Shown here: positions 27,704 through 34,755 of the stretch, in pieces
Numbering within the stretch: position 1 is the stretch's first letter
Layout: every line of letters starts with the position of its first letter
Assembly: GCA_963708025.1 (NCBI GenBank)
Contig: CAVPSB010000019.1
Coordinates: forward strand, 224,001 to 288,000
Source of the DNA: an uncultured Candidatus Rokubacteria bacterium
GTDB taxonomy: Bacteria > Methylomirabilota > Methylomirabilia > Rokubacteriales > DASRDR01
DNA: 64,000 nucleotides
Direction: 5' to 3'
The notes under the pieces: model-generated
Database searches by the model: none
Told to the model about the DNA's origin: nothing
The model's input: the letters and a program-made list of their open reading frames with translations, nothing else
Position numbers and translations under genes: made by a program

Positions 27704-28644
27704 CGATCCAGTTCGGCTGGTCGCTGCAGGGCCGGGGTCTCCTGGCCGGCCGGGAGGCCATCACCACGCTGGCGAAGCGGGCCGACGCCCTCGGCTACGA
27801 CTCGGTCTGGGTCACCGACCGCCTGGTCATCCCGACCGCGGGCACGACCGCGTACCCGTACTCGGCCACCGGCGGTTTCCCCATCGGCCCCGACGAGCCC
27901 TGGCTCGAGGCGCTGACCGCCGTGACCTACCTGGCCACGGTCACCGAGCGCATCCGGGTGGGGACGAGCGTGCTGGTGATTCCCTACCGGAACCCGATCC
28001 ACACCGCGCGGGCGCTGGCCACGGCGGACTACCTCTCCGGCGGCCGCGTGATCCTCGGCGCCGGCATCGGCTGGTGGCGCGAGGAGTTCGCGGCGGTCGG
28101 CGCGTCCTTCGAGGATCGGGCCGCGCGGACGGTCGAGGCACTCCGGCTGATGAAGCGGATCTGGACCGAGCCCCGGGTGACCGTGGCCGGCGCCGGGGAG
28201 GTGGGCGGCCTCCGACCCCAGCCGGTCCAGCGGCCGCACCTGCCGATCTGGATCGGCGGCCACAGCGACGCGGCGCTCCGGCGGGTGGTGGCGGTGGCCG
28301 ACGGCTGGCACCCGCTGGGTCTCCGGCCGCCGGTCGCGCTGCACCCGCCAGAGCTGGCCGCGCGGGTACGCCGGCTCGGCGAGCTGGCCGTCGCGGCCGG
28401 CCGCGATCCGGCGTCGATCACGGTCGCCTTCAAGGCCCCGGTCCGGTTCGACGACACCGCCGGCCCGGGCCGCTCCCCGCTGGCCGGGTCGCCGGCCCGG
28501 ATCGTGGAAGACCTCGAGGCGTACGTGGCGGCCGGCGTCCGGCACTTCGTGCTCGACTTCTCGGTGACGACGCTCCCCGAGATGCTCGGCGTGCTCGATC
28601 GCTTCGCCGAGGACGTTCGACCCCGTCTCGTGGGCTCACGGTGA
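27700..28644 (+). CDS. LLM-class (luciferase-like, probably F420-dependent) oxidoreductase
   Basis: GYDSVWVTD, SGGRVILGAGIGW and PIWIGGHS. Confidence 0.9.
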   Translation: MTIQFGWSLQGRGLLAGREAITTLAKRADALGYDSVWVTDRLVIPTAGTTAYPYSATGGFPIGPDEPWLEALTAVTYLATVTERIRVGTSVLVIPYRNPIHTARALATADYLSGGRVILGAGIGWWREEFAAVGASFEDRAARTVEALRLMKRIWTEPRVTVAGAGEVGGLRPQPVQRPHLPIWIGGHSDAALRRVVAVADGWHPLGLRPPVALHPPELAARVRRLGELAVAAGRDPASITVAFKAPVRFDDTAGPGRSPLAGSPARIVEDLEAYVAAGVRHFVLDFSVTTLPEMLGVLDRFAEDVRPRLVGSR

Positions 28645-28680
28645 GAGCGCCAGAGGCCGACGGCGGCTCAGCGGCGCCCG

Positions 28681-28763
28681 GGGGTCAGGCCTTTCATTCT
28701 TTACATTCCTTGCGCGGTCCCGGCGGGGAGCCGGAGACTGTCACGAATGAAAGGCCCGACCCC
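28681..28763. mobile_element. Family C inverted-repeat mini-element (83 bp)
   Basis: GGGGTCAGGCCTTTCATTC ... GAATGAAAGGCCCGACCCC; near-identical to 29376-29458. Confidence 0.85.
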
Positions 28764-29392
28764 ACGCCGGGGCGATAGCCGGCCGCGATCGCGGCGACGC
28801 TGGAGCGCGGGGTGAGGACCGTGACGATCGCCTCACCGGGGCAGTCCCGGGGCGGTCCATATCCAGCGGGTGACCAGGGCCGGAGGGTGCCCTGCCACAC
28901 CAGGAGTGGATCGGCGGCGCCGGGCAGCGCGACGATCACGCCGTCCGGCAGCGTGCCGAGCGTGGCGCGGAACGTGTGCTGCCGGCCGTCGGAGCCGAGC
29001 CGATCCCGGTGGAGCTCCCGGTCGATGGCGGCGATCGGAGCGCCGGGATGGAGACCCCGATCGGGGTTCCCGGTGAGCCAGGCGGCCTTGAACCGGCGGT
29101 AGTCGGCCCGGCGGCACTCGCCGCACGGGCGGTGTCCAGCGGCCAGCGCGGTGGCCTCGTCCAGGAAGAAGAGCTCGGTGTACCGCCCGGGCGTCATCAC
29201 GGCCCGCCGGCGCCCGCGGAAATCCAGCCGACACGTCACCCAGGCGCGATAGCCGGCGGCGACCCGGCGGACGATGCGGCGGGACGCATCGTGGAGCCGC
29301 CCCCGGTTCCCCATGAGCGTGCCGCGGGTGGAGACGGCGAGAAGGTCCCCGAAGGGGTCCCCGCGGTTCTGCAGCGGGGTCAGGCCTTTCAT
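28694..29392 (-). CDS. Conserved hypothetical protein (LQNR.DPFG / GNRG.LHD / AAGHRPCGECRR), putative metal-binding
   Basis: Clean ORF with YTELFFLDEATALAAGHRPCxEC; start and stop both fall inside family C elements. Confidence 0.8.
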   Translation of the reverse strand: MKGLTPLQNRGDPFGDLLAVSTRGTLMGNRGRLHDASRRIVRRVAAGYRAWVTCRLDFRGRRRAVMTPGRYTELFFLDEATALAAGHRPCGECRRADYRRFKAAWLTGNPDRGLHPGAPIAAIDRELHRDRLGSDGRQHTFRATLGTLPDGVIVALPGAADPLLVWQGTLRPWSPAGYGPPRDCPGEAIVTVLTPRSSVAAIAAGYRPGVGSGLSFVTVSGSPPGPRKECKE

Positions 29393-29458
29393 TCTTTACA
29401 TTTCTTGCGCGGTCCCGGCGGGGAGCCGAAGACTGTTAAGAATGAAAGGCCTGACCCC
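29376..29458. mobile_element. Family C inverted-repeat mini-element (83 bp)
   Basis: Perfect 21-bp terminal inverted repeats. Confidence 0.85.
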
Positions 29459-29460
29459 AC

Positions 29461-30198
29461 TTACCAGATCTCGGCGGGGATCGGGAGGCTCCGGAGGTCG
29501 GCCTCGGTGAGCGGCGCGTTTGGCGTGATGCCCACGCCGCCGAGGAGGGCGTGGATCTGGCGGACGTGCTGGGCGGCGTGCCAGGTCGTGCGCTCCAGCA
29601 GGTCGTGCCCGCTCTGCGGGCCGTAGTAGGTCTCGACGAGGCCCTCCCACGCCCCGGGCCGGGCGAACCACTCGGCGAGTCGGCGGCGGACCGTCTTGCC
29701 GTAGGCCGCCACGGCGGGTCCGTCGGCCACCTCGGGCGGCGCCGCCTCGTCGAGCCACGCCTTCGGCAGGCGCCGCGCCGCCATGGCCTCGGGGAAGGCG
29801 AGCGCCAGCCGGAACACGTGGTAGCCGAGCTGCCGGATCGAGCGGTCACGGCCCGGGTGGGCCAGCTCCAAGTGCTCGGGCGGGACCTGGCGCATCGCCT
29901 GCGCGGCCAGGTCGAGGATCCGATCCAGGCGCCGGGCCAGCTCCGGCGGCGCCAGGCGGTCCGCCGCCTCGTACGGCATCCCGACCAGCGCCGCGAGCGC
30001 CTTCGGGTTCCAGCCATGGACAACGCGATCGCCAATGACGGTCGCCGGCGGCCCCGGTACGCCGAGACGGGCCAGCTCCGCGCGCGCCGCGGGCCGCGCC
30101 TCGACGTCGATCGCCTCGAACGGCACGTTCCACGACGCGAGCAACTCTCGCGTCTTGGCGCAGGAGCTTCAGCCGGGGCGGAGGTACACGGTGACCAT
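29461..30198 (-). CDS. Probable selenoprotein: glutaredoxin (UxxC)-DinB-like fusion, 245 aa with Sec at codon 10
   Basis: ATG 30198 gives MVTVYLRPG-TGA(30169-30171)-SSCAKTRELL, in frame with ORF 29461-30144. Grx cis-Pro region (GVPGPPAT...VHGW) and DinB-like His motifs (LGYHVF, TWHAAQHVRQ). Confidence 0.85.
30140..30168 (-). promoter_or_regulatory. Candidate bacterial SECIS hairpin
   Basis: Immediately 3' of the UGA: AGCUC-CU-GCG-CCAAGA-CGC-GA-GAGUU stem-loop, folded by eye. Confidence 0.55.
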
Positions 30199-30219
30199 GC
30201 GCTTCACCTCTTCCGGTTC

Positions 30220-30452
30220 AGTGGGCGGGGCCGATGAGCGTCGCAATCTTCATCTCGGTCGTGACGCGCTCGGCCTACGGCCTCGCGTCCGTCCCGACCT
30301 CTGGTCGTCGTTCGGACGGCCCTCGGCCTTTGGGGTCGTCGCCGATCCTCGGCGTACTCGGAGTACGCCTGCGGTCGGCGACTCCCTGCGTCCTAGCGCT
30401 GCTCGCTCCTCGACCCCGCCCCGAGAACTTGACTCACCTTGACTGGAGTCTA
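30220..30452 (+). repeat. Repeat family E, copy 1
   Basis: GGGGCCGATGAGCGTCGCA...GTCGCCGATCCTCGGCGTACTCGGAGTACGCCTGCGGTCGGCGAC...GCTGCTCGCTCCTCG; also at 34845 (-) and 55037 (+). Confidence 0.9.
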
Positions 30453-30471
30453 GACCAGGCTAGCGCCGAGC

Positions 30472-31110
30472 TCAACGCGTTGCGCGGCGGCGGGCGCACT
30501 TGGGTCGCCGGCGCGGGGGGATCGAGGCCTCCCCGACGGGGGCGGTCGCGCCGGACGCGGTTTCCCACGCCGCCGGGTCCTGGCGGAAGTAGTCGCTCAG
30601 GATGTCGTACAGCGCCCGGTGGCTCCGGCGGAGCGCGACGGGGATCCCGAAGAAGGCCTCGGCGGCGACGGCGAGGAACTCGACCCGGTTCGTCAGCGCG
30701 TACGGGCTGAGGACCGACTGCCCGCGCAGCAAACGCTTCTCCTCGCGCGGCCACAGTCGGTCCCAGGCCGCCCTCCGGGCCGAGCCAAAGCCGACCGGGA
30801 TCCCGTCCGCCTCGCCGTCCCCCATGTCCAGGAGGTGCGTGAACTCGTGGATCCCCACGTGGTAGCCGCCGGCGCGATTCTCGAAGCTCGCCTGAAGGCT
30901 CGGCGCCGACATCACCACGATGCCCCACGGGTGAGCCTGTCCCGCCAGCTCGGGGGCGTCGAAGCCGTACTCCTCGTCGAAGTCCTTCGGGTAGAGGAGG
31001 ACTTCCGACAGGCGGGTCCACGCGGACCCCGGCCAGCCCGCCGTGAGGGTCACGGCCGACGCGGCGACCAGAACCCGCAGCTCCTCGGTCACGTCGATCT
31101 CGATCCCCCC
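30472..31110 (-). pseudogene. M90 (MtfA/DgsA-like) zinc peptidase, apparently N-terminally truncated
   Basis: VLLYP, HVGIHEFTHLLD, YALTNRVEFLAVAAEAFF and LYDILSDYFRQDP; no N-terminal region or clear start after the ABC gene stop. Confidence 0.7.
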
Positions 31111-31166
31111 CGGACGAGGTCGGGGAAGAGGTTTTGCGAAATGGGCGCCGCTCCCGGATGGGAGGG

Positions 31167-34100
31167 TCAGGCGCCGAGGGCGGGGACGGCAGCGAGCTGG
31201 CGGTGGACGAGGCGGGCGTAGAGGCCGCCGCGCTCCAGGAGCTCGGCGTGGCGGCCGATCTCCGCCACCCGGCCCTCGTCCAGCACCACGATCCGGTCGG
31301 CGTCGCGGACGGTCGACAGCCGGTGGGCGATCACGAGCGTCGTCCGCCCGCGGGAGAGCCGGTCCAGCGCGTCGTGCACCGCCTGCTCGTTGACCGCGTC
31401 GAGGTGCGAGGTGGCCTCGTCGAGCAGCAGCACCGGCGCGTCCTTGAGGAAGGCCCGGGCGATCGCCACCCGCTGGCGCTGGCCGCCCGAGAGCTGGGCA
31501 CCCCGCTCGCCCACCAGGGTGTCGAGGCCGTCGGGCAGCGAGGCCACCAGCTCGCCGAGCGCGGCCTGCTCGACGGCCGCCTGGAGGTCCGCCGGCGTGG
31601 CGTCGGGCCGGGCCAGCAGCACGTTGGCCCGCAGCGTGTCGTTGAAGAGGTAGGTGTCCTGGGCGACGAGCGCGATCCGGCGGCGGAGGTCGTCGAGCCG
31701 GTACTCGCGGAGGTCGTGGCCGAGGAGCCGCAGGCTCCCCGCGTCGGGGTCCCAGAAGCGGAGGAGCAGGTGGGCGACCGTCGTCTTCCCCGCGCCCGAG
31801 GGGCCCACCAGCGCGATCCGGCTGCCGCGGGTGACCCCGAACGAGACGCCGGCCAGGGCCGGCCGCCGCCGGCCGGGGTAAGTGAAGGTGACCTCGGCCA
31901 GCTCGAGGGCGAGCGGCGAGCGCGGCGCGCTGGCGGGCACCCCGGGGCCATCCCGGACGGGCACCGGCTCCGCGTGCACCACGTGGAGCCGCCGGGTGGC
32001 GGCGAAGGTGTCGGCGAGCTGGCGTCCGACCTGGGCGACCTCCCAGACCGGGACGAACGCGGAGAGGGCGAGGAGGGTCAGCAGCGGGAGCGCGCCGGGG
32101 TCGAGCGCGCCCCCCGCCGCGAGCGCGGCGCCCGTGCCGGCGACGGCGAGCCCGCCGAGCGCCGTCACCGCGTCCTGGATCGCGCCCTCGCGCGTCACGT
32201 CGCGGAGGAACGGCATCCGCGCCTCGAAGTAGCCGCGGGCGCGCGCCGCGAACTCCTCGCCGCGGCGCCGGACCTGCTGGAAGGCCAGGATCTCCCCCAG
32301 CCCCTGGATCGTGTCGACGGCGTGGGCGTTCAGCTCGCCCGACGCCTCCCGCGCCCGGGCGCCCAGCCGGTCGATCCGCCGCCGGCGGAGGACGGGCGTG
32401 AGCGCGGCGTAGGCGAGGAACGGCAGGAGGACCGCGGCGATCTCCCAGCGGTGGGCGAGGAGCGTTCCGATGACCACGGCCGGGACGAGGACCGCGACGG
32501 CCACCGGCGTGATTGTGTGGGCGAAGAAGTACTCGATCAGCTCGACGTCGTGGGTGGCCATGCCGACGAGGTCGCCGCTCCGCCGGCGGGTCAGGTACGC
32601 CGGCGCCAGCGCCTCGAGCTTCCGGAAGAGCCGGATCCGCATGTCGAGGAGGAGCCGGTAGGCGATGTCGTGGGCGAGCCAGGACTCGAGCCAGTGAAGG
32701 ATGCCCGCCAGCGGGGCGACCGCGCCGAGGAGGAGGAGCCAGCGTCCGAACGGCTCCCCGCGGGCGAGGGCGCGGACCGTGAGGGCGCTCGCGACGCCCA
32801 CCCCGATCAGCGCGGCCACGCGGGCCACGCCGAGGCCGAACGTCAGGCCGAGGCGGAGCCGGTGGCCCCGGCTCAGGCCGAGCAGGACGCGGATGACCCC
32901 GCCCCAGCCGAGCCCCTCCGCCCGGAGGACGGCCTCGTCGCGCTCGGCGGGCTCCGGCCCCTCGTCGGGCGGGCTCGTCGGGCGTGACGGCCGGCCCCGG
33001 TCCCGCCGCGACGGGGGCGCCGGAGCCCGGCTCCGCGACCTGGCCCGCCATCAGCCGGTAGTACGCGCCCCCGCGCGCCAGGAGCGCCGTGTGACGCCCG
33101 CTCTCCACGACGCGGCCTCGGTCGAGGACCAGGATCCGGTCGGCGCCGATCACGCTCGAGAGCCGGTGGGCGCAGATCAGCGTGGTCCGGCCCTCCATCA
33201 GGCGGTCGAGCGCCGCCTGGATGGCGGCCTCGCTCTCCGCGTCGACGGACGAGAGCGCCTCGTCGAGGACGAGGATCGGCGCGTCACGGAGGAGCGCGCG
33301 GGCGATGGCGACGCGCTGGCGCTGGCCGCCGGAGAGCCGCACGCCCCGCTCGCCGACGACGGTCGCGTAGCCGTGGGGGAGCCGCTCGATGAACGCGTGG
33401 GCGCTGGCCGCGCGCGCGGCGGCCTCCAGCTCGGCCGGCGTGGCGTCCGGCTTGCCCATCCGGAGGTTGTCCTCGACGGTGCCGTGGAAGAGGTAGGTGT
33501 CCTGACTCACCACGGCGATCCGGCTGCGGAGCGGGTCGAGGCCGAGCTCGCGCACGTCGCGCCCGCCGACCCGCACGTGGCCGCCCTGCGGATCGTAGAA
33601 GCGCAGGAGGAGCTTCAGCACCGTCGACTTCCCCGATCCGCTCGGCCCCACGATCGCGACGCGCTCCCCGGCGCCGACCGTGAAGCTCAGCCCCTCGTGG
33701 GCCGGCCGCCGGCCCCCGGGATAGGCGAACGCGACGTTCTCGAACGCGATCGTGGGCGGCAGCGCGGCGGCATCCACGGGCGGGCCGACGGGATCGCGGA
33801 CCAGCGGCTCCGCCGACAGCACCTGGGTGATGCCCTCCGCCGCCGCCAGGCCGAGCATGCCCTGGTGGAGCAGGACGCGCAGCTCGCGGAGTGGGCGGAA
33901 GACCTCGATCCCGAGCATGAGGACGACCAGCAGCGCCGGGAGCGTCATGTCGCCGGCGCGGACCCGGTAGGCGCCGAGGGCGAGGGCCGCGGCCGCCCCC
34001 ACGGCCATCCCGGCGTCGGTGAGGCCGCGGGCGAGGGTGTTGGTGCCGAGGACGCCCATGGTCCGGCGAAACAGCTCCCCGCCCTCGCGCTCGAGCCGCG

Positions 34101-34755
34101 CCGCCCGGGCGCCGCCCTGGCCGAAGGCCTTGAGCGTGGCCAGGCCCTGGAGCGCGTCGAGCAGCTCCGCCGCGTAGGCGCCGTAGGCCCGTTGCCGCTC
34201 CCGGCTCCGCCGGCTGTCGAGCCGGTGCCAGGCGGAGGGCGCGACGAGCGTGACGATGGCCGCGAGCAGGAAGACGACCGCGACGGGCCGGTCGATCACC
34301 GCCACCAGGCCGAAGATGAGGAAGGGCGTGGCGGCCGTCACCAGGAGCTGCGGCAGATACTGGCCGAAGTAGATCTCGAGCTGCTGCACGCCCTCGACCA
34401 GCGACACCATGACGTCCCCGGTCCGCTCCCGGACGAAGTGGGCGGGCCCGAGGCGGGTGACGTGATCGTAGAGGGTCTCGCGGAGGCGCGCCTGGACGCG
34501 GGCCGCCGTGTGGTGGGCGAGCATGGCCCGCGCGTACTCGAGGCCGGCCCGGACGGCGACGAGGCCCGCCACCAGCGCGACCGGGAGAACGAGGGCGCCG
34601 AGCGGGGCGCCGATCAGGACCCGGGCCAGCAGCCAGCCGAGGAGCGCCAGCCGGGCGGTGCCGGCGGCGACGGCCAGGATCCCGAGGACGGCGGCAGCGA
34701 CGATGCGGAGCCGCAGCCCCTCGGTGAAGCACCAGAGCCGTCGGTCGAAATACAC
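31167..34755 (-). CDS. Fused double ABC exporter (TMD-NBD-TMD-NBD, CydDC-like); frameshift near 32970
   Basis: Two Walker A motifs (GPSGSGKS, GPSGAGKT) and two LSGGQRQR; the linker VLRAEGLGW continues in the frame of ORF 31167-32828. Confidence 0.88.

Follow-up and report, generated by a model that had tools for sequence, protein, structure and literature searches.

Does the TGA triplet at 30169..30171 of a Candidatus Rokubacteria genome fragment end a short reading frame, or does it encode selenocysteine (Sec, U) within a longer one? The fragment, referred to here as the window, is the whole analysed stretch of 64,000 nucleotides (nt) from assembly GCA_963708025.1 (contig CAVPSB010000019.1, positions 224,001 to 288,000), and the gene in question lies on its minus strand, as do all features of this gene and its RNA given below. 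The open reading frame (ORF) list opens the frame at a TTG at 30144 and obtains 227 amino acids (aa); read-through from an ATG upstream gives 245 aa. A preliminary description of the locus had pointed out this caller start and the sequence ATG-VTVYLRPG-TGA-SSC upstream of it in the same frame, and both are indeed present. From sequence comparisons, we consider it very probable (roughly 93%) that 30198..29461 forms a single intact gene encoding a selenoprotein of 245 residues, which joins an NrdH/glutaredoxin-like UxxC domain to a DinB/YfiT domain. This figure covers the gene and its domain make-up, with the enzymatic mechanism excluded.

The full coding sequence (29461..30198) comprises 245 codons and a TAA stop codon (29463-29461, read from the sequence) when TGA is translated as Sec, which is then codon 10. 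The ATG (30198-30196) has a Shine-Dalgarno-like GAGGTG 6 nt on its 5′ side (30205..30210, a motif match only) and is followed by VTVYLRPG, the TGA, SSC and AKTRELLASW…, so that U10 (30169..30171) occupies the first position of a UxxC motif whose resolving Cys is Cys13 (TGC, 30160..30162), invariant in our alignments. The gene is single-copy in its own genome, with one in-frame TGA. In a crude screen of the window for other TGA sites of the UxxC, CxxU or CU type, 65 candidates were obtained, and the context looked protein-like by eye only at 30169-30171. A scan of 29300-30500 for promoters and terminators returned no site of either kind, and among 24 runs no RNA data set containing the stretch is listed.

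One line of evidence on the TGA comes from what relatives carry in its place. Scanning one genome per species yielded 80 related loci, three of which are partial and lack the site; in the 77 that cover it, the codon is TGA in 71 and TGC in six, with conserved flanking codons. Full-length database proteins P0122 and P0123 show PGCSSC at the site. Among the 150 best representatives of clusters at 50% identity, 50 have a match starting at query residue 5 or earlier, and 49 of these full-length distant representatives have C-x-x-C at the site, mostly as PGC[ST]SC, the remaining one (P0175) being without Cys there. The UGA thus stands where the first Cys of a glutaredoxin CxxC belongs, as had been claimed at the outset, and the homologue search proposed then turned up both the Cys-aligned forms (PGCSSC) and further TGA-bearing homologues. 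Within the phylum, a hand count of the matches spanning the site (starting at residue 5 or earlier) gives one TGA in 117/118 and none in the last (G179:C139), TGA being counted per match in this tally, irrespective of its position within the match. On a quick tree the Cys label needs two changes, from which no direction of Sec/Cys change is read. Two variants in the wider set are P0124, with Ser at both redox positions (PGSSSS), and P0214, a protein of 721 aa that holds the whole glutaredoxin-DinB module at residues 471-715.

The codons around the TGA are conserved for the amino acids they specify. The three codons that lead up to it encode Arg, Pro and Gly in 68, 64 and 72, respectively, of the 72 Sec sequences, each by way of four to six different codons, and those after it encode Ser or Thr, Ser, and Cys, with Cys13 kept in 72/72. 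Judged by this conservation, selection acts on the encoded protein both before and after the TGA. The triplet at which callers start the gene (30142..30144) is TTG in 29/72 of the Sec loci and CTC, CTG, CTT, TTT or others elsewhere; in the window it lies inside the apical loop of the RNA hairpin described next, and we regard it as a false start.

The hairpin, a bacterial Sec insertion sequence (bSECIS), lies at 30130..30158 and is supported by covariation, by a minimum free energy (MFE) of −17.1 kcal/mol for its 29 nt and by its fit to the published bSECIS model. It consists of a lower stem (30158-30156 with 30132-30130; alignment columns 14-16/40-42), an upper stem of 8 base pairs (bp) formed by GACGCGAG/CUCGCGUC (30154-30147 with 30141-30134; columns 18-25/31-38) and the 5-nt apical loop AGUUG (30146-30142), with G in second place and then U. 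In the gapless alignment of the 72 Sec sequences over 54 nt from the TGA, this hairpin is paired in 90.8% of cells, compared with 36.8-55.2% when the partner strand is slid. Changes on both sides of a pair affect five pairs in 36 cells, a score reached by 0/500 shuffles, and include compensatory exchanges between AU and CG in nine rows and between AU and GC in 18 rows. Furthermore, an Arg/Lys codon in one arm, CGA, AGA or AAA, covaries with CTC-GCG, CTC-TCG or CTT-TCG, respectively, in the opposite arm, partly through synonymous sites.

The bSECIS model as outlined in a recent review specifies a loop of 3-9 nt with G within the first two places, 4-16 bp in the upper stem, a UGA-to-loop distance of 16-37 nt and an MFE of −7.5 kcal/mol or lower (PMC13188914). 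The window hairpin lies within all four limits: its loop has 5 nt, its upper stem 8 bp, the distance from UGA to loop is 22 nt and the MFE is −17.1 kcal/mol; a fold of −7.5 kcal/mol or lower is found in 71/72 Sec loci. In five of the six Cys forms the folding energy amounts to no more than −0.2 to −7.5 kcal/mol, and the sixth (L089), which lies within a Sec clade on the quick tree, has kept the hairpin at −12. The preliminary description had placed a SECIS-like hairpin directly after the UGA; a conserved bSECIS does follow it, slightly further downstream than proposed. The pairing originally drawn (AGCUC/GAGUU and GCG/CGC; columns 4-8/25-29 and 11-13/20-22) is possible in the window but not conserved, being paired in 67.2% of cells with 0 compensatory changes, as in shuffled alignments.

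A Sec codon requires a host that can decode it, and a check of selA, selB, selC and selD, suggested along with the original observation, found tRNA-Sec, selA, selB and selD all present above their cut-offs. The tRNA-Sec scores 76.2 bits (cut-off 47) and is called SeC with anticodon tca by ARAGORN; selA (597.8 bits) and selB (371.9 bits) adjoin it on contig C32, both over curated cut-offs; and selD (398.4 bits, over its curated cut-off) lies at C7:91381-92304 (L019) and has an in-frame TGA of its own (SHGAG-U-ACK). These contigs of the draft assembly are other than the one with the selenoprotein gene. In the same family, selB is over its cut-off in 20/21 genomes. A second selD-like match (L020, C23:88505-89419; 270 bits, no stop) sits inside an 833-aa open frame and may be part of a fusion. 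Since the selA and selB matches contain no internal stops, and homologues of the selenoprotein have exactly one TGA, TGA is no general sense codon here. Together, four independent lines, namely the Sec/Cys pairing, the frame conserved on both sides, the Sec machinery and the SECIS, lead us to conclude that UGA at codon 10 is, on comparative grounds, read as Sec. During translation, the hairpin, 13-42 nt past the UGA, would presumably recruit SelB carrying Sec-tRNA(Sec).

The predicted protein falls into two domains. Residues 1-75 (29974..30198) make up an NrdH/glutaredoxin-like thioredoxin-fold domain with cis-Pro P51, assigned from PF00462 and fold matches, and residues 80-231 (29506..29961) a four-helix bundle of the DinB/YfiT fold, assigned from fold matches and PF12867. 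The Pfam Glutaredoxin model (PF00462) matches residues 2-60 with E 4.1e-13, at 49.8 bits against a cut-off of 22.9. Matches to NCBIfam are all below threshold, the best being the YruB-type glutaredoxin-like TIGR02196 (E 2e-14), with the metal-binding TIGR03086 also present (E 1.9e-9); among the NCBIfam models of known selenoprotein families, none reaches its cut-off with the read-through protein. The best Protein Data Bank (PDB) sequence match is the clostridial glutaredoxin 7c10, 'Dithiol cGrx1' (E 3.9e-14).

In an alignment of 32 full-length members, G9, U/C10, S12, C13, P51, R119 and H127 are invariant, as is a C-terminal block consisting of E202, R203, T204, W206, H207, A208, Q210, H211, R213 and Q214. 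The metal site of the DinB/YfiT family is a His triad. By analogy with it, His127 (29818..29820, invariant in 32/32) would be the first of a metal-binding triad completed by His207 and His211, whose codons (29566..29580) lie in the invariant motif ERTTWHAAQHxRQ. The proteobacterial Cys forms (L099 and L103-L106) have an extra Cys (xCQ) at residues ~60-63, where Sec forms have HGW, and this may be a clade-specific third redox residue.

An AlphaFold2 model built on the 32-member alignment has a predicted local distance difference test (pLDDT) score of 94.3 and a predicted template modelling (pTM) score of 0.89, and the latter suggests that the two modelled domains pack against each other. The N-terminal domain is modelled in the order beta-alpha-beta-alpha-beta-beta-alpha, and its fold matches (VIA) include 3zij (Z 13.8, root-mean-square deviation (rmsd) 1.1 Å over 73 residues) and NrdH 1h75 (Z 12.9). 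For the C-terminal domain, the same comparison (VIA) gives DR0053 (6iz2) with Z 15.3 and rmsd 2.3 Å over 141 residues, followed by YfiT 1rxq (Z 12.7), mycothiol-dependent maleylpyruvate isomerase (MDMPI) 2nsg (12.0), mycothiol S-transferase (MST) 8f5v (11.7) and BstA 5wk0 (10.1), and Foldseek reaches TM 0.81 for this domain. Among the fold matches of the model, no solved chain covers both domains well. The fusion of a glutaredoxin to DinB, proposed in the preliminary description, is thus recovered by Pfam, by the AlphaFold2 model and by fold matches to redoxins and DinB/YfiT bundles.

Several observations count against this account of the gene. The Pfam DinB_2 model (PF12867) matches residues 91-215 with E 1.6e-4 and 22.5 bits, just below its cut-off of 24.8, precomputed PF12867 matches being listed for many close relatives, and when the family profile was run against PDB sequences, only the redoxin domain was matched. 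The hairpin of one Sec locus (L102) reaches only −5.5 kcal/mol, and the stem pair at columns 23/33 is open in 16/59 distinct sequences. Folding of the window sequence by itself, which had been proposed as a check, showed no unusual stability: the 66-nt stretch folds unremarkably for G+C-rich DNA (z = −0.59), with 53/200 shuffles as stable. Because the single-sequence fold is not unusual, support for the hairpin comes from comparison of homologues and not from energy. Furthermore, no selB match at E <= 1e-60 turned up in one genome that carries the TGA gene and is 99% complete (G165), and the assembly of the window itself has 8.18% contamination; in answer to the latter, the repeat found upstream of the selenoprotein gene also occurs beside selB on contig C32.

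Could the TGA nevertheless be a true stop, the gene starting at TTG 30144 and the nine upstream codons being a remnant or a short leader peptide? Every gene caller reads the gene in this way, and the best 120 matches among 5.8 billion clusters are all 214-228 aa long and cover at most 93% of the query, for example GenBank MBI3455456.1, a 'DinB family protein' of 227 aa; no full-length Sec-bearing record is found among the matches of the database protein search. Such truncation by standard pipelines had been foreseen in the preliminary description. The shortened entries miss the first ~18 residues, including the whole active site, and according to the model the thioredoxin fold of the shortened product would be missing strand beta1 and all of the redox motif. 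The upstream codons, however, are conserved in frame at the protein level, the supposed TTG start is present in fewer than half of the Sec loci, Cys forms read straight through and the hairpin covaries, all of which make a true stop highly improbable. Consequences for the databases follow from the selenoprotein reading: a widespread selenoprotein architecture would be consistently mis-annotated and in need of correction.

An error is the other way to dispose of the TGA, in that it could stand for TGC or TGT misread in sequencing or assembly, or could be generally a sense codon in this host. The assembly is metagenomic or draft-like, with 49 contigs and the contamination given above, and this lends the idea some initial plausibility. 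The same TGA is found, however, in 71 independent genome records and, by the hand count, in nearly all site-spanning matches of the phylum, and in two other public runs there are contigs that span 30130-30207/30245, with no other letter at 30169-30171 among the matches listed. Contigs of runs X1-X4 belong mostly to relatives (88-99% alike), and no piece of them covers the whole stretch. Because so many independent records carry the TGA, we exclude sequencing error, and a general sense reading is opposed by the stop-free selA and selB and the single TGA of each homologue; the probability left to error and general sense together is negligible. We therefore retain the selenoprotein reading in what follows.

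What might such a protein do? Given a real gene, the mechanism that we regard as most likely, tentatively and at somewhat less than even odds, has the two domains acting on a common substrate. Among DinB/YfiT proteins are S-transferases for bacillithiol and mycothiol as well as an isomerase that depends on mycothiol (PMC5790435). Like these thiol S-transferases, the DinB domain would employ a His3-bound metal, where a substrate that contains a thiol or is electrophilic would be bound and activated; the U10 selenolate would act as the attacking nucleophile and form a selenenylsulfide, C13 would resolve it, and thioredoxin reductase or a low-molecular-weight thiol would then reduce the U10-C13 pair again. 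The preliminary description had suggested that such a fusion could couple thiol conjugation with reduction. In layout the protein resembles a self-contained glutathione S-transferase (GST), with a thioredoxin-fold domain and a helical domain. Gene context lends this mechanism no support, in that no conserved neighbour gene hints at function: the four neighbouring proteins in the window have matches in 0, 0, 4 and 2 loci out of the 80, no genuine neighbour recurs in over 12 loci when flank ORFs are clustered all against all (the bigger clusters being, by member counts, low-complexity shadow frames), and Pfam identifies one PEP mutase only among five flank-cluster representatives.

A different function is conceivable for the same selenoprotein, in which U10/C13 and the His triad bind a metal or metalloid (e.g., Hg, As, Cu or selenium itself) and the protein serves as a chaperone, a sensor or a detoxifier in place of a thiol transferase or reductase. 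In Table 1 of the review, many of the bacterial selenoproteins described of late are metal-binding or organometallic (PMC13188914), the N-terminal domain weakly matches ArsC/Spx-type models (NF002459, E 5.8e-5; NF041106, E 0.054), and the two modelled domains appear to pack together. The best N-terminal matches, however, are NrdH/glutaredoxin redoxins and not ArsC, and metal-resistance genes are not conserved alongside. Matches at Z ~10 are also obtained with the DinB domains of EgtB, OvsA and SenA, proteins that make C-S and C-Se bonds, but such Z values fall within the range common for helical bundles. On this evidence a metal-binding role appears unlikely, and the redox mechanism remains our working proposal. 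A bolder reading, which we regard as possible but on the whole doubtful, is that the protein is the first DinB/YfiT-fold selenoenzyme, in which the selenolate of the fused redoxin works directly at the His3-metal centre in a GST-convergent architecture nearly universal in Rokubacteriales-type genomes. If true, this would amount to a new thiol- or selenol-dependent detoxification or sulfur/selenium-transfer chemistry, with Cys versions in Proteobacteria.

The gene is present in 123/201 genomes sampled from the phylum, in 16/16 other genomes of its own family and in 104/125 of the neighbouring family, the two main families together reaching 120/141; these tallies include three unpublished genomes (G101, G058 and G029), and the picture is the same without them. 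Most genomes of this phylum, a poorly known one of soil and groundwater, carry the gene, which therefore belongs in accounts of the phylum's redox biology and selenium demand. Database labels of the 80 loci are mostly Candidatus Rokubacteria or Methylomirabilota, a few being labelled Binatia, Acidobacteriota, Thermodesulfobacteriota, Verrucomicrobiia, Actinomycetota, SAR324 or Nitrosocosmicus, and some of these outlying labels may be binning errors. Alphaproteobacteria contribute seven Sec forms, and Betaproteobacteria a Cys clade with Ramlibacter monticola among its members.

The wider family counts 990 representatives at E <= 1e-3, 71 of them at E <= 1e-30. Some 20 distant representatives (31-40% identity; P0167, P0170, P0201, P0213, P0273 and others) open just past the redox motif (MKEFLS… or MRTKEFL…); they resemble shortened gene calls, and the seven alphaproteobacterial TGA loci (L094-L102) look like the same group, so that truncated database entries may conceal more subfamilies with Sec. 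DinB-only paralogues, in G030, G032, G073, G196, G123, G070 and other genomes, match from residues ~65-87 to 245, without redoxin or stop, and suggest a free-standing DinB gene as the starting point of the fusion.

The DNA around the gene is rich in repeats. Between the selenoprotein gene and an M90 peptidase gene, a dispersed repeat of ~220 nt occupies 30220-30439 (the stretch searched being 30205-30470); it has 56 matches at 76-98% identity on many contigs of its own genome, one of them directly beside selB (C32:201381-201558), is very deep in contigs of four metagenome runs (depth up to ~1700) and looks like a MITE- or REP-like element. On the other side, an 85-nt palindromic element with 28-nt arms is present in two copies (29376-29460 and 28681-28765, 94% alike), one of which begins right after the selenoprotein stop codon; 51 matches are found in the same genome, both strands counted. 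The two copies flank an ORF at 28694-29392 (232 aa), whose ATG lies inside the palindromic element and which matches no Pfam family. An Rfam scan of 28600-30600 gave only two sub-threshold matches to microRNA models, both on this palindromic repeat. Upstream, the listed 1427-aa ORF on the minus strand (30472-34755) is spurious, a product of the open frames in G+C-rich DNA; its 3′ portion corresponds to the M90 (MtfA-like) peptidase (30472-31170, E 4e-41), and 31167-32828 encodes an ABC transporter that has a membrane domain.

The protein connects Sec with the DinB/YfiT thiol-transferase superfamily, a link for which we found no precedent in print. Neither a glutaredoxin-DinB fusion nor any DinB entry is among the 119 families and subfamilies in Table 1 of the 2026 review (PMC13188914), a full-text literature search for selenoprotein or selenocysteine together with DinB returned nothing relevant, and the main text of the deep-Sep paper mentions neither DinB nor glutaredoxin (PMC12013277). 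The same review cites a 2026 survey of groundwater metagenome-assembled genomes (MAGs), in which a Methylomirabilota MAG has 63 selenoprotein genes with 'potentially novel candidates' (PMC13188914), and this survey, or the supplements of the cited papers, may already list the family. Few DinB/YfiT proteins have a known in vivo role (PMC5790435), and the natural Sec/Cys pair with a fused redox partner offers a concrete route to one.

How does the protein compare with known systems? Sec-glutaredoxin (Grx, PF00462, UxxC) is an established and experimentally verified family (Table 1 of PMC13188914), with which the N-terminal domain shares its Pfam family and Sec in the first position of UxxC. Known Sec-glutaredoxins, however, are small and single-domain, whereas here the redoxin is fused to a DinB domain of ~165 residues, and its motif, U-S-S-C, lies in a domain that scores closer to YruB/NrdH-type models. 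Structurally, NrdH-redoxin and BC3987 (1h75, 4hs1 and 3zij) are close, with Z 12.9-13.8, rmsd 1.1-1.9 Å over 73-74 residues and 26-33% identity. The scores for NrdH TIGR02194 (E 1.2e-8, 35.1 bits against 85.75) and YruB TIGR02196 (53.8 against 88.55) fall short of their cut-offs and do not confer membership, and unlike NrdH-redoxin the protein has no ribonucleotide-reductase context, carries Sec in place of Cys and is fused to a second domain. The Uxx-star (NF041212) and HUGP/GUXX-star (NF045501) proteins likewise combine a Grx-like fold with Sec and are weakly matched (E 2.6e-8 and 9.8e-5), but their cut-offs are missed, at 34 bits where 66 are required and at 21.9 where 325 are, so the protein is not a member; moreover, their Sec is three residues from the C-terminus, and here it is residue 10 of 245.

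For the second domain, the DinB/YfiT thiol S-transferases (YfiT/BstA, MST and MDMPI) offer the same four-helix-bundle fold and a His triad that is invariant in our family, although identity is 10-18% and the solved members are without a redoxin domain or Sec. In module order the protein follows canonical GSTs and E. coli Grx2, with weak whole-length matches (1g7o and 4hz2, TM ~0.3). The helical domain here, however, is of another fold, a DinB bundle, and the likeness to GSTs is for this reason one of analogy and not of membership.

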